Shown: positions 4,060 to 56,856 of the stretch, one piece after another
Layout of the letters: every line of letters begins with the position of its first letter
How positions within the stretch are numbered: the first letter of the stretch is position 1
Assembly (NCBI GenBank): GCA_964612105.1
Contig: CAZTEU010000001.1
Span: 147,437-211,436, forward strand
DNA: 64,000 nt
From: an uncultured Gammaproteobacteria bacterium
GTDB taxonomy: Bacteria; Patescibacteriota; Patescibacteriia; Magasanikbacterales; UBA922
Reading direction: 5' to 3'
Notes under the pieces: model-generated
Told to the model about the DNA's origin: nothing
Database searches by the model: none
The model's input: only the letters and a program-made list of their open reading frames with translations
Position numbers and translations under genes: made by a program

Positions 4060-4506
4060 CTATGAGTCTATAGCCATCACGACAACCCTTCCACTGTCCT
4101 CAATGTGTGCAAACACATGGAGAATATCCTCCAAGCCCAGATTGCGTGCTCTCAGAGCCTCGCCTGCCTTGCACAACTCTTTCAGATGAAAAAGATTATC
4201 CTCTCCCTCATCACGACCACACTTCTCCCTACCACCACCGTAGGCATCACAGTCTGTATGCTGTACCAGCATAACCTTCGTAACACCACGCATAGCAACA
4301 GAGATATCCTCAATATCACGAAACAGCCTAGAGTTCGGATCCAGCAGGTCTTTTGGGCCTCCTGGAACGGAAATAAGGTCGTGATCGTGTGGCACCCTCT
4401 CCTTACCATGGTGCCTGTACATGATGAAGTCCTTCAGCGGACCATTCAACCGGAAGTCCATGCACCGTACGACAAGCCATTCACATTGTGTTTTGGGATT
4501 CTCCAT
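4060..4506 (-). CDS. beta-class carbonic anhydrase-like protein (Cab-type), paralog 1
   Basis: GC-rich ORF of 148 aa. VVRCMDFRLN (C-x-D-x-R) plus VQHTDCDAYGG (H-x-x-C) matches the zinc-ligand arrangement of minimal beta-CAs such as M. thermoautotrophicum Cab (ITCMDSRL / HTDCG), but the Gly after the Cys is replaced by Asp. A strong SD GAAGGAGGG sits upstream. Confidence 0.45.
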   Translation of the reverse strand: MENPKTQCEWLVVRCMDFRLNGPLKDFIMYRHHGKERVPHDHDLISVPGGPKDLLDPNSRLFRDIEDISVAMRGVTKVMLVQHTDCDAYGGGREKCGRDEGEDNLFHLKELCKAGEALRARNLGLEDILHVFAHIEDSGRVVVMAIDS

Positions 4507-4533
4507 CCTACCCTCCTTCTGTGCGCTTCTGCG

Positions 4534-4965
4534 CTAGTTGTCCCCGAGATAATCCACCAATCTGCACACAAACTCCCCATTATCCATTTTGTGTGCAAAA
4601 ACCATTAGTACTTCTTCCAGCTCTGGGGTTGTCTGCTTGAGTAGTATTCTGGCATGTTTGAGTATGCTGGTGTTGGCTTTCAAGCTGTCATCTCTGATTG
4701 GATGTGGGTAGTCACAGTCCACATGATGGACAATCATGATCTTGGTCACACCATAGCTTATAACGAGCGTATCCACGACCAGCTTTTTCATCGCAGAAAG
4801 ATTGGTAATCATCTGCAAAGGACCACCATGAACAGAAACTTGGTGGTACTTATGAGTGATACCAAGATGCAAATTCATGCTGATAAAGTGGTGAATTGCC
4901 AGATTGAGTCGTGAATCGACACAGCGAATCACTGCCCACCTGCTCCGAGCGTTGGAATTATCCAT
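4534..4965 (-). CDS. beta-class carbonic anhydrase-like protein, paralog 2
   Basis: 143 aa with VIRCVDSRLN and VHHVDCDYPH. It is clearly paralogous to 4060-4506. GC-rich, with SD AGGGAGGACAG upstream. Confidence 0.45.
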   Translation of the reverse strand: MDNSNARSRWAVIRCVDSRLNLAIHHFISMNLHLGITHKYHQVSVHGGPLQMITNLSAMKKLVVDTLVISYGVTKIMIVHHVDCDYPHPIRDDSLKANTSILKHARILLKQTTPELEEVLMVFAHKMDNGEFVCRLVDYLGDN

Positions 4966-5049
4966 ACTGTCCTCCCTGGTTCTGTTAGTGCCACTTGCAG
5001 TGGCCGTCTATAAATGAGACAATAGCATGGAAATAATAAGAAATCAAGT

Positions 5050-5802
5050 ATGATAAAAATTAACAGACCAATTGTTTTTTTTGACTTAGAAACAACAGGT
5101 GTAGATCCTTTTACAGACAGAATAGTGCAAGTTGGTGCTATAAAAATACACCCGGATGGAGAGAAGGAAGAGTGGAATCAGTTAATTAATCCACAGATAG
5201 CAATTCCACAGGTTGTTATAGACGTTCATGGTATTACAGATGAAATGGTAAAAGATAAGCCAACTTTTGCTGAGTTAACTCAGAAGTTCGCTGAGTTCTT
5301 TCATGAAGTTGATTTAGGTGGTTATAATGCAAAGAATTTCGATATACCAATGTTAATGGCTGAGTTTAACCGTGTAGGACTAGAAATGGATTTAGAATCT
5401 GTAAAGATTATAGATCCAATGGCTATTTTCCGTAAAAAAGAACCTAGAACATTAGAGGCTGCTTACAAGAAATATTGCGATAAGGAGTTGGTAGATGCAC
5501 ATGATGCTATGGTGGATATAAGAGCATCTATAGAAGTTTTTGAGGGTCAGATGAAGCATTATGATGACTTACCAGATAATCTAGATGAAATGCATGAATA
5601 TTGCTTCCCAGAAGACCCGGATGCGTATGATGCAGAAGGAAAACTAAAGATAATAGATGGAGAAATTACAATTAACTTTGGAAAGCACAAAGGAAAACCA
5701 CTACAAAGATTAGCTGTAACAGATCCTGGATATCTAGAATGGATACTAAATGGAAGCTTCTCAGAAAAAGTTAAGAAGGCAGTAAAGGATCACAAAAAAT
5801 AA
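5050..5802 (+). CDS. DEDDh 3'-5' exonuclease (DnaQ/epsilon-like)
   Basis: Exo I motif FFDLETTG, plus later D and H-x4-D motifs (DAHDAMVD). 250 aa. Confidence 0.75.
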   Translation: MIKINRPIVFFDLETTGVDPFTDRIVQVGAIKIHPDGEKEEWNQLINPQIAIPQVVIDVHGITDEMVKDKPTFAELTQKFAEFFHEVDLGGYNAKNFDIPMLMAEFNRVGLEMDLESVKIIDPMAIFRKKEPRTLEAAYKKYCDKELVDAHDAMVDIRASIEVFEGQMKHYDDLPDNLDEMHEYCFPEDPDAYDAEGKLKIIDGEITINFGKHKGKPLQRLAVTDPGYLEWILNGSFSEKVKKAVKDHKK

Positions 5803-5804
5803 AA

Positions 5805-5931: not shown

Positions 5932-6777
5932 CTATCGTTTGCCCTTCTCCTCCTCAGTGACATCGAAGGGCTTGATGTCGTTGAAGCCGGTATCCGCCTT
6001 GGTGCCCGGCAAGTTATTCACCACACCGACCTTGTTGAGCTCAGCGAGCGACACGTTGCCATAGCAGGTCGCTTTCACCCTTCTCTCCAGATTCATCCCG
6101 TACCCTTTCACGGTGGGAATATCCGAACGGCTCATGGTCTTGCAGAACTGCTCAACATCTCCTGGTCGGACATACTTGTGGTCTTTCTGGATGTACTTGA
6201 CATCGTGATTGACTGCATACGCCCAGTGTGCCGTCGTGAGAAACATCCTGGATAAAACACTCTCACTGGGCGATACCTTCTGCCAGGATTCGACCTTCTC
6301 GGCCAGCTTGTCCCATGCGACCATTTTGTGATAGGTATCGAGAACAACGCCGGTCACCCGTGTTGTGTACCTTCCGTCCCACGACATGTGTGGTTTGGTT
6401 GGATCTGGGATGATCTGCTTGACCGTGTTCGCATACCACGTCAAGAGGACTCTCCCCTTGCTGTAGTACTGACTCGGGACAACCTTGCCCTCCTCATCTT
6501 TCCGGAGCATCGTCCCAGCATCCGCACTGATCATGACCGAGATGCACTCAGCCACCTTCGGAGCGTGGAGTTGGTACTTCAGGACAGACTGGATCCGCTT
6601 GCTATACCCGTAGAACGCCACCTCCTTCGAGGGAACCTCGAAGTCAGCCAGGTTCATGTTGACGCACTGAAGCGTCTTGTTTGTGCCGTAGCCACCACCC
6701 ACCTGGGCAGCGCCACAGCCGATCATCAGGAACATCACGACGCCCATCAACAGGGCACCGAACAGTTTCTTCTTCAT
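5932..6777 (-). CDS. lipoprotein, hypothetical (GC-rich island)
   Basis: Start moved to the ATG at 6777 (MKKKLFGALLMGVVMFLMIGCGAA), which sits behind SD GGAGGAAG. The N-terminus is a signal peptide with lipobox LMIGC. ~56% GC in an AT-rich backbone. No recognisable domain. Confidence 0.6.
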   Translation of the reverse strand: MKKKLFGALLMGVVMFLMIGCGAAQVGGGYGTNKTLQCVNMNLADFEVPSKEVAFYGYSKRIQSVLKYQLHAPKVAECISVMISADAGTMLRKDEEGKVVPSQYYSKGRVLLTWYANTVKQIIPDPTKPHMSWDGRYTTRVTGVVLDTYHKMVAWDKLAEKVESWQKVSPSESVLSRMFLTTAHWAYAVNHDVKYIQKDHKYVRPGDVEQFCKTMSRSDIPTVKGYGMNLERRVKATCYGNVSLAELNKVGVVNNLPGTKADTGFNDIKPFDVTEEEKGKR

Positions 6778-7008
6778 CTTCTTCCTCCACACGGATTACG
6801 CCCCGTGATGCGCCTTTGGTCGACAGCTTATCGACACGGAGTATGATATTTAATCAATTAAATACCCCACTCTATGCCCAAATCTGACCGCGTATAATAG
6901 CACATTATTCCACTTTTGTCAAGTTAATCCACATATCCTTAGTTTATTATAGTACGAGTGCCTTTTTTTTGCTATAATATAACAAAATACTCCCCTGAGT
7001 TAATTTTT

Positions 7009-11978: not shown

Positions 11979-13544
11979 ATGGCACTATATCATACATATC
12001 GTCCACAGAATTTTTCGGATGTTGTGGGTCAAGAACACATTGTAAGGACTTTGGAAAACCAGACATCCAGAGGAAAGGTTGCGCATGCATACCTATTTTC
12101 TGGTCCGCGGGGTGTTGGTAAGACTACCCTAGCTCGTATTCTGGCTAAATCTGTAAATTGTCAGAATAGGGAGGAAAATGACTCTAATCCATGCAATACA
12201 TGTCAAAGCTGTACTGATATATCCTCAACACGCTCTATAGATGTGGTTGAGATAGATGCTGCTAGCCATACAGGTGTAGATAATGTTAGGGAAAATATTA
12301 TTGAGCATGCACGATTCCAGCCAACCTCATCATCATATAAGGTGTTTATTATAGATGAGGTACACATGCTCTCCACAAGCGCATTTAATGCCCTTTTGAA
12401 GACATTAGAAGAACCTCCTGCACATGCTAAGTTTATTCTTGCTACAACAGAGCTCAAAAAGCTCCCTGAGACAATTGTATCTCGCTGTCAGAGATTTGGA
12501 TTTACTCGCGTAGCTTACAATGACCTTAAGAAACACCTTAAAAATATATCAAAGTTAGAGGAAATAGAAATAGATGATGATGTTTTGGACAGAATAATAG
12601 CTAAAAGCGATGGTTGTGTGAGAGATGCTATAAGTCTTTTTGAACAAGTTATTGCCACAGGTCAAAAACATATAGATGCAGATATTGCTAGTGCTGTTCT
12701 GCCAGTTGCAAAGTATGAGGATATTCTATTATTTGTAAGTTCTATAATAAGTAAAGATATCTCTAAATCCCTGAATACTTTGGAAGATATATTACAAGAA
12801 GGTACAGACTGCGTATTCTTGGCAGAGCAGACAATATCCTTTTTGCGTTATACTCTAATCCTAAAAAATACGCCAGGAAACACCATACCAGGTACAGATT
12901 TAGACAAAAAAACCATAGATAGTCTTGGCGAGTTAGGTGCTTCTATATCCTCAGGAGAGTTGGTCAATCTTATAGATATCTTTTTACACAGGAAAACCCA
13001 CATTCGCACCAGTCCAATTCCCCAACTTCCAATTGAGATGGCAATAATAAAGTGGTCTGGTGAAAACAATACAGCTCAAGTAAAAAAAAATAATGTAGAG
13101 GGTGGAGAAGAAAAAAAAGAAATAGAAACTGTGGAAAAGGTTGCTAAAGAAGAGTCTATTACAGTGGAATCCAAAAAAGAAGTAGCTTCCTCTACACCCT
13201 CAAGTGAAACAGCGCAAGGTGAAGTAACGAAGAAAGATATAGACGACAATTGGGCTAAATTCAAAACCACCATTGAATCTGTAAGCCCATCTCTAGGTTT
13301 TTTGCTGAACATGACAACAATTAGAGACGTGAAAGACAATACGGTTATGTTGTCTGTCCCCTACCCTATACACAAAGATAAACTAACGGAACTACAAACA
13401 AAAACGCAGATAGAAACTATATTCTCTGATTTATTATGCTCACCAGTAAAGATTGATGTGGTAGTAGGGCAAGGAGAAGACAAAAAGACAGATTCAGAAC
13501 TAAATGAACTAGCTTCATTAGTAGGTGGAACAGTAATACCTTAG
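11979..13544 (+). CDS. dnaX: DNA polymerase III subunit gamma/tau
   Basis: AAA+ Walker A GPRGVGKTTLARILAK, DExx box FIIDEVHML, and zinc module CNTCQSC. Confidence 0.85.
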   Translation: MALYHTYRPQNFSDVVGQEHIVRTLENQTSRGKVAHAYLFSGPRGVGKTTLARILAKSVNCQNREENDSNPCNTCQSCTDISSTRSIDVVEIDAASHTGVDNVRENIIEHARFQPTSSSYKVFIIDEVHMLSTSAFNALLKTLEEPPAHAKFILATTELKKLPETIVSRCQRFGFTRVAYNDLKKHLKNISKLEEIEIDDDVLDRIIAKSDGCVRDAISLFEQVIATGQKHIDADIASAVLPVAKYEDILLFVSSIISKDISKSLNTLEDILQEGTDCVFLAEQTISFLRYTLILKNTPGNTIPGTDLDKKTIDSLGELGASISSGELVNLIDIFLHRKTHIRTSPIPQLPIEMAIIKWSGENNTAQVKKNNVEGGEEKKEIETVEKVAKEESITVESKKEVASSTPSSETAQGEVTKKDIDDNWAKFKTTIESVSPSLGFLLNMTTIRDVKDNTVMLSVPYPIHKDKLTELQTKTQIETIFSDLLCSPVKIDVVVGQGEDKKTDSELNELASLVGGTVIP

Positions 13545-13545
13545 T

Positions 13546-14544
13546 ATGCACACTCGCCTGTTACTCTCTTTTTCTATTTCCATTATCATATGTGGTACTT
13601 TTTCTTATATCTCACCAGTATTTAGTGCAGGAAATAGTATATCTGTACCATTTACATCACAAGCACCTTTATCAGATTGGAGACAGCCATGGCAGGATGC
13701 ATGCGAAGAGGCAACAATTGTAATGATAGATAATTACTATGGAGATACTAAGCCAGATAAATACGAGGCGCGTGATCAAATTAGGCATTTACTTAAATTA
13801 AAGAAAAAAACGTATGGATATAGTTTGGACGAACCAGCGCAGGAAATTGTAGATATTATTAACTCATTCTATAAGTGGGAAGCATATATTGTGGACTCTC
13901 CAACATTAGAACAGCTAAAAGGTGAAATAGATCTACAAAGACCTGTCCTTGTTCCTACCCATGGTAAATTTCTATATAATCCTCACTTTATAGGAAGAGG
14001 TCCTGACTATCATACAATTGTAATATCTGGTTATGATGATGAAACCAGAGAGTTTATTACACAAGAACCGGGGACACGGCATGGGCTTGACTTTCGCTAC
14101 TCTTATGATACAATCCTCAACGCAATGCATGACTATCGTCCAGGTGGTAAAACCTCATCCGGCGCAAAAGTAGCCATATTTACTCGCCACACCCACACAA
14201 TCCTCTCTGGAGGATTAGATACAGACCATGATGGCCTTAGCAAGGAGGATGAGCTCGAGCACAACACCATATTATGGCTCTCTGACAGCGATGGAGATGG
14301 ATATAGTGATGGAGAAGAGGTAAGTAAAGGATACTCCCCCACAGCGTCATTTTACAATGCAAAGCACGGAGATTTACTATTATCTTCAAATAGCCCCAAA
14401 GTCTATCTAATTGAGAATGGGAAAAAGCGACACATCCTAAATGAACATGTATTTATACGATATAAGTTTAACTGGGGGGATATAAAAAAAGTAGACCAAC
14501 ATGTTTTAGACTCTCTGGAAGATGCACCTGTCCTTACAATATAA
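13546..14544 (+). CDS. secreted C39-like (papain-fold) peptidase-domain protein with Ca-binding-type D-x-D-x-DG repeats
   Basis: Signal peptide. VPFTSQAPLSDW...ACEEATIVMIDNYYG (Peptidase_C39_2-like) followed by a His motif. C-terminal DTDHDGLSKEDE / DSDGDGYSDGEE thrombospondin-type-3-like repeats. Confidence 0.5.
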   Translation: MHTRLLLSFSISIIICGTFSYISPVFSAGNSISVPFTSQAPLSDWRQPWQDACEEATIVMIDNYYGDTKPDKYEARDQIRHLLKLKKKTYGYSLDEPAQEIVDIINSFYKWEAYIVDSPTLEQLKGEIDLQRPVLVPTHGKFLYNPHFIGRGPDYHTIVISGYDDETREFITQEPGTRHGLDFRYSYDTILNAMHDYRPGGKTSSGAKVAIFTRHTHTILSGGLDTDHDGLSKEDELEHNTILWLSDSDGDGYSDGEEVSKGYSPTASFYNAKHGDLLLSSNSPKVYLIENGKKRHILNEHVFIRYKFNWGDIKKVDQHVLDSLEDAPVLTI

Positions 14545-14547
14545 CAC

Positions 14548-14618
14548 TCGGAGATCGTCTAATGGTAGGACTCCAGGTTCTGGTCCTGGCTATCGGGGTT
14601 CGAATCCCTGTCTCCGAA
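14548..14618 (+). tRNA. tRNA-Gln (anticodon CUG)
   Basis: Cloverleaf with acceptor TCGGAGA/TCTCCGA (U1-A72), D-arm GTCT-AATGGTA-GGAC, anticodon stem CCAGG/CCTGG with loop TTCTGGT, and T-arm CGGGG-TTCGAAT-CCCTG. Discriminator A. CCA is not encoded. Confidence 0.8.
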
Positions 14619-14622
14619 CAAT

Positions 14623-15459
14623 ATGCTACTAAAAGGAAAACCCTTAGCGGACAAAATTAACAAAGACACGGCTAAGCGTGTGAAAAAAATAAAGAAAGCT
14701 GGTATAAATCCCAAACTTTCTGTTGTTTTAGTAGGAGAAGATGCTCCATCAAAGACTTATGTAAAGAAAAAAGCTGAGATGGCAGAAAAAGTGGGGCTAG
14801 ACTTTGCACTTATAAAACTTCCTGCAAAATCTACAAAAGAAGAAATAATCAAAAAACTTAAGAAAATACAAAAGGATAAAAATCTATTTGGACTAATCGT
14901 GCAATTACCACTTCCGGAACCGTTATATACAGATGATGTGATTAATGCAATTGATTCATCAGTAGATGTAGATTGCCTTACAAACGAAAGCTTAGGTAAG
15001 TTAATGATGAAAACAAATATTATTTCTCCACCAACACCAAATGCTGTAATGAGTATAATAGAAGATCAGAAAATAAATGTATCTGGTAAAAATATAGTAA
15101 TTATAGGTGTGGGAGCGCTTGTTGGAAAGCCACTATCTGTAATGTTAATGAACAAACGAGCTAGTGTTACTACCTGCAACAGCTCTACAAAAGATACAAA
15201 AGAAAAGTGCCTTAAGGCAGACATTATTGTTACAGGAATTGGAAAGCCTCACATAGTTACTAAAGATATGGTTAATAAAGGAACCATAGTAATAGATGCT
15301 GGAGTTGACTTTCCAAACGGAAAAATTAGTGGAGATGTGGATTATAAGGACTTGGACAAAAAAGGGTGTAGGGTAACGCCAACCCCAGGCGGTGTGGGAC
15401 CATTAACTGTCGCTCACTTGCTGAGAAATACAGTTATACTGGCAGAAAACAAAGACTAG
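14623..15459 (+). CDS. folD: bifunctional methylene-THF dehydrogenase/cyclohydrolase
   Basis: Collinear with E. coli FolD: LSVVLVGED...LIVQLPLP...VIGVGALVGKP...PTPGGVGPLTVAHL. Starts 5 nt after the tRNA. Confidence 0.85.
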   Translation: MLLKGKPLADKINKDTAKRVKKIKKAGINPKLSVVLVGEDAPSKTYVKKKAEMAEKVGLDFALIKLPAKSTKEEIIKKLKKIQKDKNLFGLIVQLPLPEPLYTDDVINAIDSSVDVDCLTNESLGKLMMKTNIISPPTPNAVMSIIEDQKINVSGKNIVIIGVGALVGKPLSVMLMNKRASVTTCNSSTKDTKEKCLKADIIVTGIGKPHIVTKDMVNKGTIVIDAGVDFPNGKISGDVDYKDLDKKGCRVTPTPGGVGPLTVAHLLRNTVILAENKD

Positions 15460-15476
15460 ACTATTAAATCACCACA

Positions 15477-15507
15477 AAACAGCTTTATCTAAAGCTGTTT
15501 TTGTTTT
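15477..15507. terminator. bidirectional terminator
   Basis: AAACAGCTTT-atct-AAAGCTGTTT hairpin followed by a T-run. Confidence 0.65.
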
Positions 15508-16454
15508 AATAGACTTTCCAATTCTTCCATACTTGTGACCCTTACTAACTTACTTCTAAACTCTTTTATTCCTGGAACCTCGAAGCCTATCTTATTTGTC
15601 TTAAAATACCAGGCTAAATGCTTCCTAAAGGTTACTATTCCCCTCTCACCATAGTGCTGTACATGAAGTTTTGCATGTTCTAGTACAACGTTAATCCTCT
15701 CATCCCAAGCAGTGATATAATCCGGATCTAGTGTTTGTTTAAAAAACCAAGGATTCCCTAAAGCCCCTCTAGCAATAAGAACCCCATCGCATTTGGTTTG
15801 CTCTAGCGCCTCTTCTACCTGCTCTGGCTTATGCACATCTCCATTAGCAATAAACGGCACATTTGCAATCTCCTTCCCCTCTCGTATCCTTTCCCAATCA
15901 CTCTTACCACTATATCCTTGTTTCTTTGTTCTTCCATGCATTGTAATTAAATCTGCGCCAGCATCCTCCAGTACGGGTATAAAAGTCTTAAAGGTATCTG
16001 GATCGTCCCAGCCTAGTCGTATCTTTACAGACAAAGGAGTGTTACCTATTTCTTTTTTTACAGCTTTAACTATTTTACTTGCTCTTTCTGGTTCTTTCAT
16101 TAAGGCAGCGCCGTTAAAGTTACTTGTTAGCTTGTACACAGGACAGCCCATGTTTATATCTATTCCTTCTGGAGATGCATGCTCCATTATTATGGATGCC
16201 GATTTTGCCATCACATCTGCGTCAGCACCAAATATCTGTTGCACTATTGGGCGTTCTACATCAACAAAGTCTGTCATACCAAGCGTCTTCTCATTTTCTC
16301 TTATTATTGCTTCTGAACTTACCATTTCACGAAAAACAATATCAGCACCACCTATCTTCCTAACAATTTGGCAAAATGGAGAATCTGTCATATCTGCCAT
16401 TGGAGATAGTGCTAATATTTTTTTGTTTTGTGATAATATGTCTTCTATCCACAT
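15489..16454 (-). CDS. tRNA-dihydrouridine synthase (DusB-like)
   Basis: TIM-barrel Dus motifs LSPMADMTDSPF, NMGCPV and KIRLGWD. 321 aa. Confidence 0.8.
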   Translation of the reverse strand: MWIEDILSQNKKILALSPMADMTDSPFCQIVRKIGGADIVFREMVSSEAIIRENEKTLGMTDFVDVERPIVQQIFGADADVMAKSASIIMEHASPEGIDINMGCPVYKLTSNFNGAALMKEPERASKIVKAVKKEIGNTPLSVKIRLGWDDPDTFKTFIPVLEDAGADLITMHGRTKKQGYSGKSDWERIREGKEIANVPFIANGDVHKPEQVEEALEQTKCDGVLIARGALGNPWFFKQTLDPDYITAWDERINVVLEHAKLHVQHYGERGIVTFRKHLAWYFKTNKIGFEVPGIKEFRSKLVRVTSMEELESLLKQKQL

Positions 16455-21192: not shown

Positions 21193-23970
21193 TTATGCAC
21201 CGTGACATTTCTTATATTTTTTTCCACTACCACAAGTGCACGGATCATTCCTTCCAACCTTATGTCCGGTTTCATCTCGTTCTTTTCTCTTAATGTGAAC
21301 CCCTTGTTCACTCATTGTCTTTTTAGCACCCTCTAAAGTCATCTTATCACCTGCCATAATTGTCGGAGCTAGTTGTATTCCTATCCCCACTTTAAAGAAC
21401 GAGTAAACAATTTCTTTTTGTATATTACTTAGAAGAGAGTTAAATAGATGATAACTTTCTTTCTTATACTCTACAAGTGGATCTCTTTGTCCATATCCTC
21501 TCAAACCAATACCTGTACGTAAATAATCAAGTGAAACCAAATGATCAACCCAAAGAGCGTCTATTGCGCGCAACATTATAGAACTTTCAAATGCTGTAGC
21601 TAATTGTTCTGGAGTCTTATCGTCTTGTGCATGCGTTTTTACATGCTCATTTATCTTGTTATATTCCTCGGTAGCTTTTTCCATTAAGAAAGAAACAATT
21701 GCTTCACGAGCTTTTACATCATCTACTTTTCCTTCTCCGTTTTTACCAAGTGAAAATAGTTTCTCACGATCATTATTATTTAGTGGAAAAATAGTCTTCG
21801 CTGTTTCATAAATTTCCTTCATGTTCCACTCTTTAGATCCTTGCTGAGATTCCCCTTCTATAACCTGTGGATTAGTGTGATAGCTAACTACAAACTCTAT
21901 CTCGCTCTCAATCATGTCCATTATCATCTCTTTTGATGTTCTTTCGTGCTTCTTCTCTTCATCTTCTAAGTCCAATATTGCTCTACGTTTTTCATAAACA
22001 ACTTCACGATGACGATTTAATACATCATCATAATTAAGAAGGTGTTTACGTGTATCAAAGTGCATAGACTCAACCTTCTTCTGAGCATTTTCTAGCATTC
22101 TGGATATCATTTTTTGCTCAATTGGCATATCATCTGGCACTTTTAATCTTTCCATTACAGATTTTAATCTATCTCCTGCAAAAATACGCATTAATTCATC
22201 ATCTGTAGAAACAAAAAATTGGGTGTCTCCAGGATCTCCCTGACGCGCAGCACGACCACGTAACTGATTATCTATACGTCTTGACTCATGTCTCTCTGTA
22301 CCAAGTACAAACAAACCACCCGCTTCCAATACTTTTTTCTCATCTTCTTTATTAACTGGATTTCCACCTAACTTAATGTCCACACCACGTCCAGCCATGT
22401 TTGTAGCAAGAGTAACAGCACCTGGACGACCCGCCTGTGCAACTATCTCTCCCTCACGCTCATGGTTCTTTGCATTAAGTGCCTCATGAGCTATTCCATT
22501 AGCTGTAAGGAACATACTAAGCTCTTCATTCTTTTCCACAGAAATTGTACCAACTAAGACAGGCTGGTTCTTTTCCTGACATTTTCTTATTAGTTCCGCT
22601 GTCGCCTTATACTTTGCCTGCTCTGTCTTATATATACGATCTGGCAAATCTTTTCTTGCGTCCGGCTTGTTTGTTGGAATTACGTGAACATCTAAACCAT
22701 ATATTTTGAAAAACTCCTCTTTTTCTGTTTCTGCTGTACCTGTCATTCCGGACAACTTCTTATACATCCTAAACAAATTCTGGAAGGTAATTGTTGCCAA
22801 AGTTCTACTTTCTCTTTGTATCTGCACACCCTCTTTTGCTTCTATCGCTTGATGCAAACCTTCTGAATACCTACGACCAGGCATTTTACGACCTGTAAAC
22901 TCATCAATAATTACTATTTCATCACCGTCTACAACATATTCCTTATCTCTCTTAAACAAGACCTCGGCTTTTAATGCCTGCTCAATATGATGAACCATTC
23001 TTAATCCACCTTCAACATATATATTTTCCACACCAAGCCATTCCTCAAACTTAGCTATTCCAGCATCTGTAAGAGTAGAACTACGCATCTTTTCATCTAT
23101 ATTATAATCTTCGTTTTCTTTTAGTTGCTTAACCAAACGAGCAAACTGATAATACTGGTCAGCCGCTTCTTCTGCAGGTGCAGAAATAATAAGTGGAGTT
23201 CTTGATTCATCAATTAAAATTGAGTCTACCTCATCGATAATACAGTAATTCATTTCGTCACCCGGGCGCATAACCATATCATCCAGTTTCTGCACCATGT
23301 TGTCACGAAGGTAATCAAAACCATACTCGTTGTTTGTTCCATAAGTTATGTCACAACGATATGCCTCTTTTCTACTGACAGGTCTAAGAAATTCATCCTC
23401 AACCTTAAAACTACCTGTACCATCCCTCTCCTCATCCAACTCTCCACCCTCTTCTCCCCCACTAAAAGATGCATCATAAACAAAGCTCACTCTTTGGTTC
23501 TGTACAACACTAACTGTAAGACCAAGATAATCATATATCTGTGCCATCCATACAGCATCACGTTTTGCCAAATAATCATTTACTGTTACAACATGAACAC
23601 CCTTTTCTTCCAATGCGTTTAAATAAGTAGGTAGAGTGGCAACGAGAGTCTTACCTTCACCTGTTCTCATCTCAGCTATCACACCCTTATGTAGAGAAAT
23701 ACCACCGACAAGTTGCACATCATAATGACGCATGTTTAATACACGACGACCAACTTCTCTTACAACAGCAAAAGCCTCTGGAAGAATATCATCCAAAGTT
23801 TCACCCTTCTTTAATCTTTCCTTAAACTCCCCTGTCTTGGCTTTTAATTTGTTATCAGAAAGAGCCTTCATGGAAGGTTCTAAACTATTTATCTTATCAA
23901 CGGTTGGCTGATAAGATTTCATCTTCTTTTTGTTTTGATCACCAAGTAATTTCTCTAGAAATTTAGCCAT
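21193..23970 (-). CDS. secA: preprotein translocase ATPase SecA
   Basis: 925 aa. DEAD motor motifs and C-terminal zinc finger CTCGSGKKYKKCHG. Confidence 0.9.
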   Translation of the reverse strand: MAKFLEKLLGDQNKKKMKSYQPTVDKINSLEPSMKALSDNKLKAKTGEFKERLKKGETLDDILPEAFAVVREVGRRVLNMRHYDVQLVGGISLHKGVIAEMRTGEGKTLVATLPTYLNALEEKGVHVVTVNDYLAKRDAVWMAQIYDYLGLTVSVVQNQRVSFVYDASFSGGEEGGELDEERDGTGSFKVEDEFLRPVSRKEAYRCDITYGTNNEYGFDYLRDNMVQKLDDMVMRPGDEMNYCIIDEVDSILIDESRTPLIISAPAEEAADQYYQFARLVKQLKENEDYNIDEKMRSSTLTDAGIAKFEEWLGVENIYVEGGLRMVHHIEQALKAEVLFKRDKEYVVDGDEIVIIDEFTGRKMPGRRYSEGLHQAIEAKEGVQIQRESRTLATITFQNLFRMYKKLSGMTGTAETEKEEFFKIYGLDVHVIPTNKPDARKDLPDRIYKTEQAKYKATAELIRKCQEKNQPVLVGTISVEKNEELSMFLTANGIAHEALNAKNHEREGEIVAQAGRPGAVTLATNMAGRGVDIKLGGNPVNKEDEKKVLEAGGLFVLGTERHESRRIDNQLRGRAARQGDPGDTQFFVSTDDELMRIFAGDRLKSVMERLKVPDDMPIEQKMISRMLENAQKKVESMHFDTRKHLLNYDDVLNRHREVVYEKRRAILDLEDEEKKHERTSKEMIMDMIESEIEFVVSYHTNPQVIEGESQQGSKEWNMKEIYETAKTIFPLNNNDREKLFSLGKNGEGKVDDVKAREAIVSFLMEKATEEYNKINEHVKTHAQDDKTPEQLATAFESSIMLRAIDALWVDHLVSLDYLRTGIGLRGYGQRDPLVEYKKESYHLFNSLLSNIQKEIVYSFFKVGIGIQLAPTIMAGDKMTLEGAKKTMSEQGVHIKRKERDETGHKVGRNDPCTCGSGKKYKKCHGA

Positions 23971-24148
23971 AATTTATGATTTTTTTGCCTGGCGATTATA
24001 ACAAAAAACAAACATATTGTCTAGTCTCTAATTACATAACTCAACAAACAAAAAATCACCCGTATTAGGATGAATGTTTCATCCTACCCAGTACTCACGA
24101 CTAGGTAGGATGTGCCTCCTTATTGGTCAGGAGTGACCGTAGATCTCC

Positions 24149-24964
24149 TTATCCCTTCTTGAGACGCAGAATTCGGTCCGTGCTGTGGAAGTTGTTGTCG
24201 AGATTGTCCCAGCGCTGTCTCCAGTGATCCGCGTGCCAGTAGACACAGCTGACGAGCTTGTTGTGGTCAGGGTTACGCCAGTCTGTGAAGACAAACACTA
24301 CCCTGTCTCGGAGCACGATGGGGATCTCGTCTTGGTGCTCCAACAAGTGCCGACCATGCTTTTCGCCGAGATGGGCATACCCAATCGTGGCACGCGCGAC
24401 CATGGCTTCGCCTCTGACACTCTCCTCACTATCTTCCAGGAAGTTGATAATCTCGTAGGTGCGGTCACCAACGGTCATCTCGGTCGGGAGAGCATCCTCT
24501 TCCTGCTTGAGACGCAGGATTCGGCTGATATTGCGGAACTGGTAGCCAATCCATTGCCATTGTCTCATCCAGTGTTTGCCATTCCAGTGTATGGTGCAAA
24601 TGTCCCCAGGATTGGCGTAATCGCGACGCCAGTTCGTGAAGACGAAGGTATTACCCCGTAGCTCGACTGGAATCTGGTGTTGGTGTTTCAGCAGATGTTC
24701 GCCTGCTTCCTTATTGGGGTTTGCGTCAATCTCGCTCACACGCCTCACCACTGTCTGACCATCTACCGACCCCTCTCCTTCCTCGTGGAACCCGAGAATC
24801 TCGTAGGTGCGGTCACCAACGGTCATCTCCTGAGGAAGGGAATCCCGGAAGAGCTTGTCGCAGAACCTCTTGACCTTCCCGGTGTTTTCCGGGTTGATCA
24901 GGTCTTCGAATCTCTTTTCACCCAACTGCTCCCGCAGATGAGCCAATTTACGCAAGGTGCCCAT
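24149..24964 (-). CDS. hypothetical protein with two tandem ~115-aa repeats (GC-rich island)
   Basis: PQEMTVGDRTYEILGFHEEGEGSV...FVFTNWRRDYANP...RILRLKQ is repeated as PTEMTVGDRTYEIINFLEDSEESV...FVFTDWRNPDHN...RILRLKK. ATG at 24964 sits behind SD GGGTGAGGAGAG. The track's GTG at 24970 is rejected. Confidence 0.5.
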   Translation of the reverse strand: MGTLRKLAHLREQLGEKRFEDLINPENTGKVKRFCDKLFRDSLPQEMTVGDRTYEILGFHEEGEGSVDGQTVVRRVSEIDANPNKEAGEHLLKHQHQIPVELRGNTFVFTNWRRDYANPGDICTIHWNGKHWMRQWQWIGYQFRNISRILRLKQEEDALPTEMTVGDRTYEIINFLEDSEESVRGEAMVARATIGYAHLGEKHGRHLLEHQDEIPIVLRDRVVFVFTDWRNPDHNKLVSCVYWHADHWRQRWDNLDNNFHSTDRILRLKKG

Positions 24965-25198
24965 TTGCACCTCTCCTCACCCTTTTGTACAAAGGGTTCA
25001 CTCCTCACCAACATGACGAAGAGGAAGACGAGTTGGTGTTCAGGTCTTCTCTTTGCATACCTAAGTAAATATACACAGAGAAGACCTAAACCATAGTATT
25101 TTAAAGAGCTATTTGACTGGTCAGATTAACATTAAATCACTATTTTGTCAATATAACCTAATTATATAACATATTTACCTAATTCTAGCTATAAAGTA

Positions 25199-25227
25199 TT
25201 GACAAATCCCTATATTTATGCTAGTTT
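25199..25227 (+). promoter_or_regulatory. putative sigma70-like promoter for rpiB
   Basis: TTGACA, a 17-nt spacer, then a weak -10 TAGTTT. AT-rich. Confidence 0.3.
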
Positions 25228-25260
25228 ATGCTCACACCCCAAGGGGAAGGAGAGAAAATC

Positions 25261-25767
25261 ATGAGTAAATCACTCAACATCGTCATCACTTCCGACCATG
25301 CAGGTCTGGATATGCGGGCGGCAATCTGCGCTTACCTGCGCAAAGAAGGTCATGCAGTCATCGACCAGGGTCCACAGCCGGGAGAGGTTGTAGACTACCC
25401 GGAGTACGCGGAGGCTGCAGTACAAGCAATGCTCTGTGACATTCCTAGCGATGTGGACGACAGCATCAAGATCGATCTGGTCATCCTCATCTGCGGTACA
25501 GGCATCGGTATGAGCATCGTCGCGAACAAGTTCAGCGGTGTCAGTGCAGCTCTGGTACACGACCATCTCACCGCGAAATTCGCGAAAGAGCACAACAACG
25601 CGAACGTGCTCTGCCTGGGCTCACGTGTGACAGCTGATGTTGTCGCAGTCGACTGCGTTGCCACGTTCCTCGAGGCAAAGTTCGAAGAGCGCCACCAACG
25701 ACGCATTGACATGATCATGGACATCGAGGTGAACGGTTCATGTATCGGATCTTTGATGTCTGACTGA
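25261..25767 (+). CDS. rpiB: ribose-5-phosphate isomerase B
   Basis: MSKSLNIVITSDHAG...CGTGIGMSIVANK matches RpiB/LacAB. Start moved to ATG 25261, 8 nt after SD AAGGGGAAGGAGAG. GC-rich. Confidence 0.8.
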   Translation: MSKSLNIVITSDHAGLDMRAAICAYLRKEGHAVIDQGPQPGEVVDYPEYAEAAVQAMLCDIPSDVDDSIKIDLVILICGTGIGMSIVANKFSGVSAALVHDHLTAKFAKEHNNANVLCLGSRVTADVVAVDCVATFLEAKFEERHQRRIDMIMDIEVNGSCIGSLMSD

Positions 25768-25778
25768 ACAAGGAGATG

Positions 25779-25815
25779 AACCAAAAGCCCCCTTCGAACG
25801 ATTCGGAGGGGGCTG
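25779..25815. terminator. GC-rich hairpin terminator (functional T-run on the minus strand, serving hpf)
   Basis: AGCCCCCTTCG-aacgat-TCGGAGGGGGCT. On the minus strand it is followed by TTTTGG. Confidence 0.5.
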
Positions 25816-25847
25816 GCGGAACTTATCATTTAACAGATGGTATTTTT

Positions 25848-26192
25848 TTATCCCTGATATTCCTTCTGCTCTCTAATCATTTTCCTGTTCTTATCTCTCA
25901 TTTTTTCTTTCATCTTTTGCAATTCTATCTTAAAATGATCTTTCACTTTGTCCACTGCTTTGTATAAATCTTCTGCGTCTTTTACAACTCGCAATGTTTT
26001 GTTTGGTACTTTTATATTAACCTCTGCGTAATATATCTTTCCTTTTTGGTGATGATTAGAACGCTTTCCAATATCTATATCTGCCTTAATTATATTATCA
26101 AAATACTTTTCCAAACTACCTATCTTTTCTTCTGCATGCTCTCTTAATGATGATGTAAGATCAATATTGGTTGCGTTAATCGTGATATTCAT
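25848..26192 (-). CDS. hpf: ribosome hibernation promoting factor (RaiA/HPF family)
   Basis: MNITINATNIDLTSSLREHAEEKIGSLEKYF...YYAEVNIKV matches the YfiA/HPF fold signature. Confidence 0.8.
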   Translation of the reverse strand: MNITINATNIDLTSSLREHAEEKIGSLEKYFDNIIKADIDIGKRSNHHQKGKIYYAEVNIKVPNKTLRVVKDAEDLYKAVDKVKDHFKIELQKMKEKMRDKNRKMIREQKEYQG

Positions 26193-27224: not shown

Positions 27225-27357
27225 AATATCCTTTACTTTTTCTCTATTTATGCTAACCTAATTACATGAACGTATTTAATGTATTCACAACAAAGAAGAC
27301 CAAGAAGGTCCTCCCTCGGAAGAGGTAGTTGTGTTGCATTAGAAAAAATTGCTAACC

Positions 27358-27384: not shown

Positions 27385-27399
27385 ATTGGGGGTGGGAAA

Positions 27400-27612: not shown

Positions 27613-27632
27613 AGCAAGGAGGACACACAGCG

Positions 27633-29744: not shown

Positions 29745-29754
29745 ATATTCTCTA

Positions 29755-51980: not shown

Positions 51981-52571
51981 ATGAGTTCACGAATAGAGTC
52001 GCCAAGCAAGAAAGACCTCAGAGAGGTATCGAATGCTTTCAAGATCACAGAGAACTGGCCAAAACCTGGTGTTACCTTCCGCTGTGTCAGCGGTGTGCTG
52101 GAGTCACCAAAACTTCGACGAATGATGAACATGGCGCTGTCAAAAAGGATCCAGGAAATGACGCCAGATGTCGTTGTGCTCCTCGATTCACGAGGCTTCC
52201 TGCTCACTCCAGCGGTAGACCTCCTCTGTCTGCCAGTTGTCATGGCGCGCAAGGCTGGCAAGCTACCACCACCATGCGTCGCTTACACTTACGACTTGGA
52301 ATACGGAACAGCGACCATCGAGCTACAGAGGCAGGCTTTCCACAAAACCAGCAGGGATATGGCTTCCCGTGGTATGAGTGGACCACCAAGAGTGGTGATC
52401 GCTGATGACGTCCTCGCAACTGGGGGCACTGTACTGGCAACCAAAACCCTTGTGGAACAGTTGGAATGCACAGTGGCAGGATACGTGTTCATCGCAGAGC
52501 TCAATGGACTTGGAGGGTCAAATAGGCTCGCCACAAAGTCCACACCTGTCGAGTCACTCTTTCGTTTCTAG
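51981..52571 (+). CDS. apt: adenine phosphoribosyltransferase (GC-rich island)
   Basis: PRTase PRPP-binding loop VVIADDVLATGGTV and APRT-like N-terminus ITENWPKPGVTFRCVSGVLESPKL. SD GGAGGG sits 6 nt upstream. Confidence 0.7.
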   Translation: MSSRIESPSKKDLREVSNAFKITENWPKPGVTFRCVSGVLESPKLRRMMNMALSKRIQEMTPDVVVLLDSRGFLLTPAVDLLCLPVVMARKAGKLPPPCVAYTYDLEYGTATIELQRQAFHKTSRDMASRGMSGPPRVVIADDVLATGGTVLATKTLVEQLECTVAGYVFIAELNGLGGSNRLATKSTPVESLFRF

Positions 52572-52583: not shown

Positions 52584-53177
52584 ATGTCCAAGGAAAGAGA
52601 AATCGACCAAATCGATACCCTCCTGACCGCAGAGGAAATCGCAGAGCGTGTTGAGAAGATCGGTAAGCAGATCTCTCTCGACTACAGAGGTAAGTTGGAC
52701 GGCCAACCACTCATCCTCATCTGTGTACTCAAAGGTTCGTTTATCTTCACAGCCGACCTGATGCGTGCCATCGATGAGGACATTCCGGTAATCGTTCAGT
52801 TCATCGCTGTGAGTTCCTACGAGGGGAAAACCACCAAATCAAGTGGTGCTGTTCGTCTCGCATACGACCTCCGTGAAAACATCGAAGGACGAGACTGCAT
52901 CATTGTAGAGGACATCGTTGACACCGGATTGACGGTGAAGTACCTTCTAGATCTGTTTGGGGCACGCAAACCGCGTTCACTGCGAGTCTGTACACTCCTC
53001 CACAAGCCGTCGCGTGAAAAGGTCAAAGTGCCACTGCAATATGTCGGCTACACAATCGAGAACAAGTTCGTTGTTGGTTGCGGTCTGGACTACGACCAGC
53101 TACTACGTGGACGAGGAGACATTGGAGAGCTGGTCTTCAAAGACGAAGGGGAAGAGGGCAGTCCTGAGGGAGGCTAG
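52584..53177 (+). CDS. hpt: hypoxanthine-guanine phosphoribosyltransferase (GC-rich island)
   Basis: LKGSFIFTADL...IVEDIVDTGLTVKYL...LLHKPSR...GCGLDY. SD GGGAGGAAG. Confidence 0.8.
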   Translation: MSKEREIDQIDTLLTAEEIAERVEKIGKQISLDYRGKLDGQPLILICVLKGSFIFTADLMRAIDEDIPVIVQFIAVSSYEGKTTKSSGAVRLAYDLRENIEGRDCIIVEDIVDTGLTVKYLLDLFGARKPRSLRVCTLLHKPSREKVKVPLQYVGYTIENKFVVGCGLDYDQLLRGRGDIGELVFKDEGEEGSPEGG

Positions 53178-54641: not shown

Positions 54642-54694
54642 AGTTACCTAGTAAAGGTAACAAAAAAACAACACATTTACAAGATAATAAAAAA

Positions 54695-54727
54695 AATCCC
54701 GATTACTCGGGATTACTAATCTATGCA
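54695..54727 (-). terminator. rho-independent terminator of the Cys-rich protein gene
   Basis: Minus strand: AATCCCGA-gtaa-TCGGGATT followed by T8. Confidence 0.7.
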
Positions 54728-54855
54728 CCATTATTGATGAACAAATTAGTGGGGCGGTGAATCTTTCGATCCACCGCCAGGGGTTCCCTCCTTGGGCTCC
54801 TCCTTCAGATTGTCCGGGACTAAACAACCTACCACCGTTCGTGCTGGCAACACTC

Positions 54856-56697
54856 TCAGATGCAGACCTGGGTAGGCCTTCCAATGGTCTTGTAGAAAAA
54901 CCACTCGATCCCGAATGCACAACCCTTGCCGTTCTTGTAGTCACAGCTCTGATCCTTGGGGTCGCTGTTGTCGCACTCAACACAGAACTTCTGGTTTTTC
55001 TTCTCGGCTGCCCAGTAGACAGTAGCACACTGCTCACCGAACTTTGACCCCTTGCAGTCCTTGTCGGCTCCACAGCAACCAAAGTCCTCATGGTGACATT
55101 TGCCGTTGAGATCACAGTAGTCCGCGGTGCAGACCTTGCCATCAGAGCAGTCCTTGTTGACCTTGCACAGCTTACATCCAGCGATTGGTTTGTATTGACA
55201 CCCATTCGTCTTGTTGCAGGAGTCTGTTGTGCACAGATCCCCGTCATCGCATGACAATTCCTTGCCTGTACAGATACTTCCCTTGCACTTGTCGTTGAGG
55301 GTGCAGACGTTCATGTCTGTGCAAATTGCACCATCGTCCATCGGGATGAAGGTGCACTTGCCGGTCTTCTGGTCACAGGAGTCCTTGGTGCAAGGGTTCT
55401 TGTCCACACACTCCACTCCCATGCCAAGACACTTGCCGTCCTTGCATCCATCGCTGGTCGTGCAAGAATCGTTGTCGTTGCAGTCGATACCATTCTGGGA
55501 TGGTGTGAAGGCACAATCTCCAGTCTTGGAGTCGCAGAAATCCTTGGTGCATGGATTGTTGTCTTCACACACCTTTGTGGTTTTCGTGATGCAGACCCCA
55601 CTGATGCACTTTTCCACAGTGCAGACGTCGCTTTCCTTGCACTTCTTCATCTCTGTGATCTTGCAACCCTTGCTTGTGCAGACCATCTTCTCGATGCACG
55701 ACTGAGCGTCGACTTTGCACTGATCGTGGTCTGGGCTGTGAGCACACTTCCCTGTTCCAAGAACGCACGAGTCGATGGTGCATGCGATTCCATCCTTGCA
55801 GTCGACAGACTCGTTCTTGCACTTGCTGTTGGCTGTGCAGGTGTCGGTGGTGCAGAGGTTCTTGTCATCACAATCACCTGACTTGGTGCACTCGCAAACG
55901 TTGATGCCTTTGGTGCACGTGTTCTTGATGCACTGATGATTGACTGTGCAAGAATCCTCGTCATCGCACTCGACGTCTGTAGAGCAACAGTCCTCGATCT
56001 CCTCGTGTATGCACTCTTTCAAGGTTTCCAAATCGCAGGAGTCTGCAGTACAAGGTTTGCCGTCGTCGCAGGACTTTTGGTTCACAGTGAACACACACTT
56101 CCCGCTCTCGAAGACGCATAGATCGTCTGTGCAATCAACCCCGTCGTCGCAAATGACATTGTCCGTGTTCACACAAAGACTGTCCTGACATACGTCGACG
56201 GTGCAGAGATTCTCATCCAAATCACACACATTGCCAATCGACTTGTACACGCAACCCTTGCCTGGATCGCATGAATCGTCCGTGCAGACATTGTCGTCGT
56301 TGCAAACCTTCCACGAATCCATGTCTCCGACACACTTCCCGCTTTCGAGATCGCACTTGGAAATCTCGGTGCAGGAGTTGTTATCATCACAGGTCGCGGT
56401 GTTTGGCATATGCACACAGCCGACATCTTCTTCGCAGACATCTTTGGTGCAAATCTTGCCGTCGTCGCATTTGTCGGGGACGTAGTCGCACTTGTTGTTG
56501 CTGTTGCATTTGCCAATCCAGCAACTCTTGATGCAATCATCCTTCGTCTCACAGAAACCAGGAGGAAGTTGTGTATCCTCAGAGCCCTGATCTGCAAAGG
56601 TAGCAGCGTCAGCCGGCCCTTTGACCGAATCTTCGCTACATGAAATTGAGAGGAAAATCACCACGAACATCGTGATGATGAGGTCCCGGTTCATCAT
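54856..56697 (-). CDS. giant cysteine-rich repeat lipoprotein/secreted protein (GC-rich island)
   Basis: Start at MMNRDLIITMFVVIFLSISC, 7 nt after SD AAGGAG. Dozens of repeats of the form C-x-D-x-N/D-x-C-T-x-D-x-C-D-x-x-T/S-G-x-C, about 18% Cys. Resembles Myxococcus-type cysteine-rich repeats (inference). Confidence 0.65.
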   Translation of the reverse strand: MMNRDLIITMFVVIFLSISCSEDSVKGPADAATFADQGSEDTQLPPGFCETKDDCIKSCWIGKCNSNNKCDYVPDKCDDGKICTKDVCEEDVGCVHMPNTATCDDNNSCTEISKCDLESGKCVGDMDSWKVCNDDNVCTDDSCDPGKGCVYKSIGNVCDLDENLCTVDVCQDSLCVNTDNVICDDGVDCTDDLCVFESGKCVFTVNQKSCDDGKPCTADSCDLETLKECIHEEIEDCCSTDVECDDEDSCTVNHQCIKNTCTKGINVCECTKSGDCDDKNLCTTDTCTANSKCKNESVDCKDGIACTIDSCVLGTGKCAHSPDHDQCKVDAQSCIEKMVCTSKGCKITEMKKCKESDVCTVEKCISGVCITKTTKVCEDNNPCTKDFCDSKTGDCAFTPSQNGIDCNDNDSCTTSDGCKDGKCLGMGVECVDKNPCTKDSCDQKTGKCTFIPMDDGAICTDMNVCTLNDKCKGSICTGKELSCDDGDLCTTDSCNKTNGCQYKPIAGCKLCKVNKDCSDGKVCTADYCDLNGKCHHEDFGCCGADKDCKGSKFGEQCATVYWAAEKKNQKFCVECDNSDPKDQSCDYKNGKGCAFGIEWFFYKTIGRPTQVCI

Positions 56698-56856
56698 CTC
56701 AGCTCCTTCTTGACTGCACTTGGCAGTACTGTTGCGCACACGAATACAAATGGTCAGCTTGAGCTAACACACACAATATCCATAAGATACTCTGTGAGCT
56801 AGCCCAAAGCATAGTATAAAAAGAACGCTGTTGTTCCTATTATAGGAAAACAGCTA

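Follow-up and report, generated by a model that had tools for sequence, protein, structure and literature searches.

Why should an AT-rich bacterial genome, in which genes start without a Shine-Dalgarno (SD) sequence, contain a few GC-rich genes that all begin behind a strong one? This question is raised by a stretch of 64,000 nucleotides (contig CAZTEU010000001.1, positions 147,437 to 211,436 of the forward strand), in the following called "the window," in which eight GC-rich open reading frames (ORFs) in five islands were compared with 54 backbone ORFs. The original prediction had interpreted the islands as foreign genes, acquired from an SD-dependent source of higher GC content and not yet adapted to their new host. 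The class of GC-rich, SD-led genes does exist, its members differ in origin, and it has persisted for a long time. We consider the following explanation to be the probable one: a native, AT-rich, and SD-less backbone of a bacterium of the candidate phyla radiation (CPR) carries five cassettes of mixed origin, which are GC-rich, SD-led, and of long standing.

The genes were characterized by their GC content, the GC content at third codon positions (GC3), and an anti-SD score, which was the duplex energy (ΔG in kcal/mol) between the 20 nt upstream of the start codon and the 16S rRNA tail CACCUCCUUA, an assumed canonical tail that may not be the one of this genome. The eight island genes are listed with GC, GC3, and ΔG, in this order, at the end of each line.

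4534 to 4965, minus strand: CA2, leading gene in a GC-rich operon of two genes, 143 amino acids (aa), beta-carbonic-anhydrase-like, SD AGGGAGGACAGT before the ATG; 0.45, 0.52, -11.1.
4060 to 4506, minus strand: CA1, second gene of the same operon, 148 aa, beta-carbonic-anhydrase-like, SD GAAGGAGGG inside the 27-nt spacer; 0.50, 0.52, -12.2.
5932 to 6777, minus strand: U281, the GC-richest ORF, 281 aa, putative lipoprotein, SD GGAGGAAGAAG; 0.54, 0.74, -9.3.
24149 to 24964, minus strand: U271, a tandem two-domain member of a family of variable proteins of diversity-generating retroelements (DGRs); 0.54, 0.68, -11.2.
25261 to 25767, plus strand: rpiB for ribose-5-phosphate isomerase B, divergent from U271, SD AAGGGGAAGGAGAG; 0.54, 0.64, -8.8.
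51981 to 52571, plus strand: apt for adenine phosphoribosyltransferase, SD GGAGGG, promoter TTGACA-N17-TATTTT with a leader of about 45 nt; 0.53, 0.55, -9.8.
52584 to 53177, plus strand: hpt for hypoxanthine phosphoribosyltransferase, 12 nt past apt, SD GGGAGGAAG; 0.51, 0.58, -11.7.
54856 to 56697, minus strand: gene for a Cys-rich repeat protein, 613 aa, putative lipoprotein, SD AAGGAG, with a 184-nt intergenic region upstream; 0.51, 0.67, -9.3.

The two groups of genes were clearly separated. The GC3 was between 0.52 and 0.74 for the island ORFs and between 0.16 and 0.37 for the backbone ORFs, with no overlap (Mann-Whitney p = 6e-6), and the overall GC content was 0.45 to 0.54 compared to 0.31 to 0.45. 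The codon-position pattern of the islands had a GC3 well above the GC content of the second codon position (GC2). Using the assumed canonical tail, all eight island genes reached anti-SD energies of -8.8 to -12.2 kcal/mol, while the backbone mean was -1.6 kcal/mol and 5 of the 54 backbone genes (9%) were at or below -6 kcal/mol, compared to 12% of random 20-mers from the backbone; the difference between both classes was again significant (p = 9e-6). In a 1-kb sliding-window profile, five GC peaks of 0.48 to 0.52 rose from a background of 0.33 to 0.40. The intergenic and leader segments around the islands had a GC content of 29% to 46%, except for the 27-nt spacer between CA2 and CA1 with 63%. 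The eight ORFs with their SD strings were all found where the original prediction had located them; the two classes are statistically separable, the islands visible in the GC profile, and the backbone starts free of SDs beyond the random rate. Its assignment of more than 50% GC to the island bodies agreed with most of them but not with CA2, which has 45%. This confirms the two-class observation as real and statistically clean.

SecA was used to place the genome. Its best match, with 67% identity, came from a metagenome-assembled genome (MAG) labelled Gammaproteobacteria, which groups with matches labelled Patescibacteria; two MAGs of Magasanikbacteria followed with 63%, then Uhrbacteria, Falkowbacteria, Nomurabacteria, and others. 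These matches place the window genome in the Patescibacteria (CPR), as a relative of the Magasanikbacteria. A Bacteroidota or amoeba-symbiont origin, which had been considered due to the missing SDs and a Dicty_CTDC match of the Cys-rich protein, was ruled out by these SecA relatives. A crude ORF-based scan, performed with the same method, found 0% to 12% SD-led ORFs in the relatives L001 to L008 and L010 to L012, so that SD-poor initiation is a property of the clade. Upstream of three minus-strand starts in the window (1868, 16454, and 47112), an extended -10 box (TGnTATAAT or near) ends 8 nt before the ATG, and a TATAAT box is located 16 to 24 nt upstream of the starts at 11979, 23970 (secA), and 29354. 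Since hexamers rich in T and A occur frequently in any AT-rich sequence, the boxes can only suggest that backbone mRNAs may be leaderless or may have very short leaders.

The foreign origin of an island can be assessed from its surroundings and from the homologs of its genes. The surroundings were informative in the case of island 3, which contains U271 and rpiB.

21193 to 26192, minus strand: insertion frame of island 3, with secA at 21193 to 23970, hpf at 25848 to 26192, and 1,877 nt in between that hold U271 and rpiB.

The identity of hpf was confirmed by the Pfam family Ribosomal_S30AE. The relatives carry murB-like, hpf, and secA in this order, with a gap of about 50 to 250 nt between hpf and secA in L001, L007, L012, and L014, and homologs of U271 or rpiB were found within 10 kb of this locus in 0 of 80 cases. 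Because hpf and secA are adjacent in the relatives and neither U271 nor rpiB is present there, island 3 is an insertion; for this junction, the absence of islands from related genomes that had been proposed as a check was borne out. A relative from the Magasanikbacteria (L002, MAG contig JBAYGI010000001.1) possesses between secA and secD, at 12944 to 16040, GC-rich and SD-led ORFs of its own, with a GC3 of 0.72 to 0.76, which encode a class-V aminotransferase and a 220-aa product. The division into two classes therefore exists elsewhere in the clade, with other genes.

Concerning the homologs, the organism names among the 120 best matches of hpt were only Polyangiaceae, Myxococcales, and Deltaproteobacteria, with most matches being unnamed, and the named best matches of rpiB were Desulfuromonas, Myxococcota, Myxococcales, Deltaproteobacteria, Thermodesulfobacterium, and Pseudomonadota. 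The named best matches of both genes are thus all outside the CPR. Two hpt homologs that were looked up reside on contigs with 61% and 67% GC in the context UPRTase-hpt-MBL-polA, and two rpiB homologs on contigs with 71% to 73% GC in the context yceD-rpmF-rpiB-nrdR-ribD. The contig with 67% GC and a hpt homolog of 56% identity (L091, JGI 3300009008, Ga0115649_1002255) is from the same JGI series as the window organism (Ga0115650, Ga0115656). Both organisms may co-occur, but the identity of 56% is too low to call the L091 organism the donor. Acquisition from a higher-GC, SD-dependent source, as originally predicted, agrees with the insertion of island 3, the names of the hpt and rpiB matches, and the contigs of 61% to 73% GC; a donor was not found, and the proposed uptake of genes from the symbiont's host is speculative.

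The second part of the prediction, that the islands are "not yet adapted," was not supported. The best non-self homologs were 63% identical for hpt and, within a range of about 45% to 54%, about 53% for rpiB, and a search of 5.8 billion protein clusters, which included those of the same samples, returned for CA1 only CA1 itself. The closest hpt relative, P0041, is a reciprocal best match (63% identity; the next matches had 50% to 59%). It is located on a 1.2-kb contig and is itself an island: its GC3 is 0.61, it is preceded by the SD AAGGAGAAGG, its flanks have only 31% to 33% GC, and the neighboring gene differs from that in the window. Imported enzymes, too, may retain a high GC content over long periods, as the two hpt genes suggest.

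The same claim failed for U271, for which many more loci were available. An exhaustive profile search yielded 618 representatives of the U271 family, mostly of about 155 aa, and a pattern scan of metagenome contigs yielded 48 family loci, 43 of them analyzable. In 42 of these 43 loci, a family gene with a GC content of 0.45 to 0.66 and a GC3 of 0.52 to 0.90 was surrounded by flanks with 0.29 to 0.51 GC. The rise in GC content was a spike one gene wide, and no family gene had a GC3 below 0.5. Most of the starts that could be placed were preceded by an AAGGAG-type SD; the neighboring ORFs were AT-rich and few of them had an SD-like site. The third codon positions across the family were composed of A 0.06, C 0.52, G 0.31, and T 0.12.

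Many of the family loci contain a second copy of about 125 nt of the 3' end of the gene, about 500 nt downstream. Between both copies, which correspond to the variable region (VR) and the template region (TR), the mismatches were positioned at adenines of the downstream copy in 18 of 18 cases in L095, 15 of 15 in L103, 19 of 20 in L094, and 15 of 15 in L093. A gene for a reverse transcriptase (RT) of the RVT_1 family adjoins the family gene in eight homolog loci, and a bAvd-like gene was found in L124. The adenine-only VR/TR mismatches and the RVT_1 RT identify the family as DGR variable proteins, and the domains of U271 share 44% to 55% identity with loci that possess such VR/TR pairs. In L095, the RT gene had a GC3 of 0.30 and the target gene of 0.83, and L093 and L110 differed in the same way. 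Because the neighboring RT gene is host-like in its GC3 in these three loci, the GC spike is a trait of the target gene and gives no indication that a whole cassette was imported. The AlphaFold model of U271 (mean pLDDT 93.7) had the C-terminal, fibre-tip domain of Bdellovibrio Bd2740 as best match in the PDB (probability 0.99), and matched also the carbohydrate recognition domains of C-type lectins (probability 0.75); a C-type-lectin-like fold is predicted with moderate confidence (TM score 0.57 on the target). A scan of IMG/VR for the family gave one match, L141, which is identical to L095.

Some genomes harbor two or three copies of the family gene, as in L108 (5713 to 6987) and L110 (2579 to 4465), where the copies are in tandem and each has its own leader; L104 and L122 are on the same 567-kb contig, 20 kb apart. 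In U271, a 36-nt near-exact repeat (97%) at 24446 to 24481 and 24794 to 24829 marks the two domains, and VR-like segments are located at 24155 to 24283 and 24509 to 24637. Contig breaks inside U271 had been considered as a sign of DGR hypervariability. This was rejected: three of five breaks were exactly at the 36-nt repeat, and all contigs matched the window.

A syntenic pair of loci, L122 and L126, bears on the persistence of the GC-richness. The flanking orthologs share 85% to 96% protein identity with 23% to 35% synonymous third-position differences, and the family gene has 29% synonymous third-position differences but a protein identity of only 55%. Since its synonymous divergence equals that of the flanks, the family gene is consistent with co-inheritance, and the low protein identity at equal synonymous divergence indicates a very fast amino acid evolution of the variable protein. 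The GC3 of the family gene was nevertheless 0.86 and 0.81, compared to 0.39 and 0.49 for the flanks. Judged across these loci, the GC-richness of U271 is a lasting family trait and not the signature of a fresh import.

These data have to be weighed against the possibility that every island was imported recently and independently, with one or several GC-rich, SD-dependent donors, possibly the host of the symbiont, as the source, and is still unameliorated in the sense of the amelioration model of Lawrence and Ochman. The insertion into the conserved hpf-secA synteny, the GC-rich contigs of the looked-up hpt and rpiB homologs, among which L091 shares its JGI sample series with the window organism, and the pooled GC1, GC2, and GC3 values of the islands, which by our own estimate from published codon-position relationships roughly fit a donor with 50% to 55% GC, would agree with such an origin. 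When synonymous changes within the U271 family were counted by parsimony, 47 were GC-to-AT and 4 AT-to-GC, which points into the same direction. This direction test was judged to be unreliable because a GC3 near 0.85 and saturated sites skew it; parsimony alone should produce, by our own estimate, about a 6:1 excess under these circumstances. The compared JGI and Logan assemblies were all identical, so that no single-nucleotide polymorphisms within the population were available to polarize mutations. Recent import is difficult to reconcile with the missing close homologs of hpt, rpiB, and CA1, with P0041 being an island in AT-rich DNA too, and with a U271 family whose genes stand out as GC-rich in about 42 of 43 AT-rich loci. 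This family also possesses a conserved leader, adjoins an RT gene of host-like GC3 in the three loci checked, and retains a GC3 above 0.8 in L122 and L126 at a flank-like synonymous divergence. Moreover, mobility genes, a tRNA target, and flanking direct repeats are missing: the sole tRNA gene of the window is at 14548, and neither direct repeats flanking the islands nor PHROG matches of the island proteins were found. Recent import of all islands is on these grounds rather unlikely.

The U271 family also has a conserved leader.

24961 to 25090, minus strand: 5' leader RNA of U271, about 130 nt, with the helices P1, P2 (alternative), P3, and P4, and the SD and the AUG behind.

A -10-like TAAAAT at 25098 to 25103 precedes this region, which implies a leader of about 130 nt. 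In P3 (CCUCUUYGYC/GGYGAGGAG), the anti-SD-like CCUCUUUGCC pairs with GGCGAGGAG. P4 pairs GCCCUUU with AAAGGGC (CCCUUU/AAAGGG), and the true SD follows after P4. In a 15-sequence alignment, P1, P3, and P4 were 98% paired with 10 compensatory pairs; controls with the partner slid by 1 to 3 columns were 49% to 60% paired. P2 was 93% paired, with compensatory changes in 4 of 8 pairs, and since P1 and P2 share seven columns, the two helices are mutually exclusive. Single leader sequences had z-scores of the minimum free energy of -5 to -6.8, with -6.8 for the leader in the window. The covariance model R1 had one match in the window (108 bits, E = 3e-20) and recognized the element before a family gene 35 times, with many of these sequences not being part of the seed alignment, including loci in L093 to L141. 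It had no match in the secA relatives and none before the other island genes. Rfam gave only chance-level matches in five leader-bearing loci, and the leader in the window remained unmatched. The leader is thus a candidate cis-regulatory RNA that is predicted to control translation of the variable protein.

Could the islands then form a separate expression class, in which selection keeps GC-rich synonymous sites, the SD, and the structured leader, with SD-dependent translation under specific conditions such as host contact? The long-lived GC-richness of the DGR-target family and the hpt pair, the two exclusive, covarying helices with SD-like and anti-SD-like tracts, and the long leaders at several islands compared to short or absent ones in the backbone would fit. 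So would the products of rpiB, apt, and hpt, which cohere around ribose-5-phosphate, phosphoribosyl pyrophosphate, and purine salvage from what is known of these pathways, and the same dichotomy with other genes in L002. The leader is nevertheless confined to one family and missing before the other island genes, plain horizontal gene transfer accounts for the enzymes, and the parsimony count points to GC decay. Ribosomal-protein genes, which usually represent the highly expressed set, have the lowest GC3 in the window (0.16 to 0.26). A separate class is, taken together, distinctly improbable. The same applies to the variant that the GC content is kept for reasons such as mRNA stability or resistance to an AU-specific RNase, which deserves little credence. 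That a distinct, long-lived class of GC-rich, SD-led genes with long leaders, comprising those for DGR variable proteins, enzymes of purine salvage and pentose metabolism, and surface proteins, forms a second, separately controllable translation program, with the competing helices of the leader as one switch, is a long shot.

A chimeric assembly with a GC-rich contaminant, or spurious ORFs in GC-rich noncoding or structured RNA, for which the chance long ORFs on both strands of GC-rich segments and the overlapping ORFs listed in the islands might speak, has a negligible probability in view of the recovery of the same DNA, with at least 99.97% identity, from several samples in independent JGI and Logan assemblies in which backbone flanks each island on both sides, the GC3 well above GC2, the curated family matches of rpiB, apt, and hpt, and the pLDDT of 93.7 and 618 homolog clusters of U271.

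The preferred explanation, a native CPR backbone with five long-lived cassettes, would work as follows. The native genes are AT-rich and start without an SD, probably from short or absent leaders. Each cassette would be a self-contained expression unit, with a strong SD and a GC-rich body in all eight genes; several cassettes have readable promoter-like boxes, terminator-like hairpins, and leaders with lengths between about 30 and 130 nt. The genes rpiB and apt-hpt would be xenologs from SD-using bacteria of higher GC content, obtained directly or via other AT-rich genomes, and their nearest sampled relatives are Myxococcota or Desulfobacterota-like bacteria. The CA pair and the two putative lipoprotein genes are probably xenologs, too. 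U271 belongs to a DGR family of CPR-like genomes, with the A-poor third positions, the SD, and the switch-like leader as stable properties of this family. The ribosome would have kept a usable anti-SD, and GC-rich, structure-prone mRNAs would need an SD in a cell that is tuned to unstructured, AU-rich starts. This need, rather than a recent transfer, would explain the persistence of the SDs. The GC content may be actively maintained, the parsimony count to the contrary being biased by composition and saturation.

Several points weigh against this explanation. Absence from the relatives was checked for island 3 alone of the five islands, and the donor assignment is based on a few source names and the GC content of contigs and not on phylogenetic trees. 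The anti-SD sequence was an assumed one: the window contains no rRNA gene, and the 16S rRNA 3'-end pattern was absent from all fetched loci. U271 may not be an active DGR target, because neither TR nor RT is present within 64 kb (tblastn found no RT or Avd gene, and there is no second copy of the 3' end of U271) and because its sequence was identical in all assemblies. That the 48 family loci belong to CPR genomes is presumed from composition, SD scarcity, and a statement in the literature (PMC8144416); comparison with proteins of the window gave no taxonomic signal for them. Finally, the count of 47 to 4 at face value favors ongoing decay and therefore recent imports.

How does this locus compare to known systems? 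Initiation in Bacteroidota is SD-poor, with strong SDs retained in only a small number of genes, for example rpsU. The window resembles this situation with backbone SD-like sites at background rate, A/T-rich upstream regions, and a small strong-SD minority, but it belongs to a CPR bacterium, and its SD-led minority is compositionally foreign and accessory and not a ribosomal autoregulatory gene. No literature on SD usage classes in CPR was found. A CPR clade with mostly SD-free starts and a minority of very strong SDs raises the question of how minimal ribosomes choose between mRNAs.

Horizontal gene transfer and compositionally atypical genomic islands have been reported in Patescibacteria (PMC12455944). 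The islands described here share with these the sharp shift in GC and GC3, for island 3 an insertion that separates two genes neighboring each other in relatives, the accessory functions, and, judged by the named best matches of hpt and rpiB, homologs outside the phylum. They differ by lacking an integrase, a tRNA target, direct repeats, and a close donor, by keeping an atypical composition over deep divergence in the cases of U271 and hpt, and by an initiation signal that differs as well.

DGRs are known in CPR, and DGR clade 2 was reported to be restricted to Patescibacteria (PMC8144416). The U271 homologs agree with DGR variable proteins in their C-terminal VR, downstream TR, RVT_1 RT, the bAvd-like gene in one case, and the lectin-like tip fold; the copy in the window, in contrast, is an invariant tandem two-domain protein without TR, RT, or Avd within the 64 kb. 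A survey treats atypical GC content in about 20% of DGRs as evidence for transfer (PMC5758913). Atypical GC content is routinely read as recent transfer, which can mislead in the case of CPR genomes and DGR loci, because the genes of the U271 family have remained GC-rich across deeply diverged genomes that are themselves AT-rich.

The RNA motifs RT-1 to RT-19 are positioned near reverse transcriptases, RT-10 between TR and RT of a DGR (PMC5737381). The U271 leader is likewise a structured RNA at retroelement loci found by comparative analysis, but unlike RT-10 it is located 5' of the target gene and also at copies without an adjacent RT. In the papers searched, neither a GC spike confined to a DGR target gene nor a leader of the U271 type was described. 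As a candidate new cis-regulatory RNA of DGR targets, it could time the production of hypervariable proteins.

The remaining island genes differ in how well their products can be assigned. The rpiB product matched Pfam LacAB_rpiB (2.4e-46) and NCBIfam rpiB; its true start is the ATG at 25261 and not the longest-ORF start at 25228, and a -35/-10 promoter is readable upstream with an implied leader of about 30 nt. The apt product matched NCBIfam apt NF002636 over the cutoff (4e-42) and the hpt product TIGR01203 (5.7e-55), and a hairpin followed by a T-run, similar to a terminator, is located 3' of hpt. The CA1 and CA2 products, which are 35% identical to each other, contain the CxDxR...HxxC motif and matched Pfam Pro_CA_2 below the cutoff of 30 bits, with 28.5 bits for CA1 and 18.6 bits (E = 0.0023) for CA2. 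The AlphaFold model of CA1 was of moderate quality (pLDDT 67.8), and Foldseek matched it to beta-carbonic anhydrases (probability 1.00, TM score about 0.5).

Upstream of U281, a promoter TTGACA-N17-TATTAT with a leader of about 115 nt is present in the region 6778 to 6925. The product, with a lipobox LMIGC read by eye, had no match in Pfam, NCBIfam, PADLOC, or PHROG. The Cys-rich protein contains six repeats of Pfam Dicty_CTDC (5.3e-28) and a lipobox LSISC, again read by eye; its gene has internal DNA repeats. Scans of IMG/VR for U281 and the Cys-rich protein gave nothing, and PADLOC and PHROGs had zero matches with the island proteins.

Two further regions between the islands differ from the backbone.

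27401 to 27613, plus strand: candidate sixth mini-island, a 70-aa ORF after GGGGGTGGGAAAG with a terminator behind, under a GC peak at 27300 to 27650.

This ORF has a GC content of 0.53, a GC3 of 0.45, and a ΔG of -12.9 for a G-rich SD-like tract, and no match in Pfam. Its coding capacity is doubtful because GC3 is below GC1 and GC2, so that it may be a sixth mini-island or a noncoding RNA. Rfam scans of the window and of the region from 27.2 to 30.3 kb gave tRNA as the only match that reached the gathering score. In the second region, 29440 to 30240, about 800 nt without a credible ORF have a GC content of 0.42 to 0.52; ARAGORN and Rfam had no match there, and no nucleotide conservation was found among the secA relatives. 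With a promoter (TTGACA-N17-TATAAT) and a terminator, both on the plus strand, and a stretch similar to transfer-messenger RNA, UCGACGGGG, on the minus strand, this region may encode one or more noncoding RNAs.

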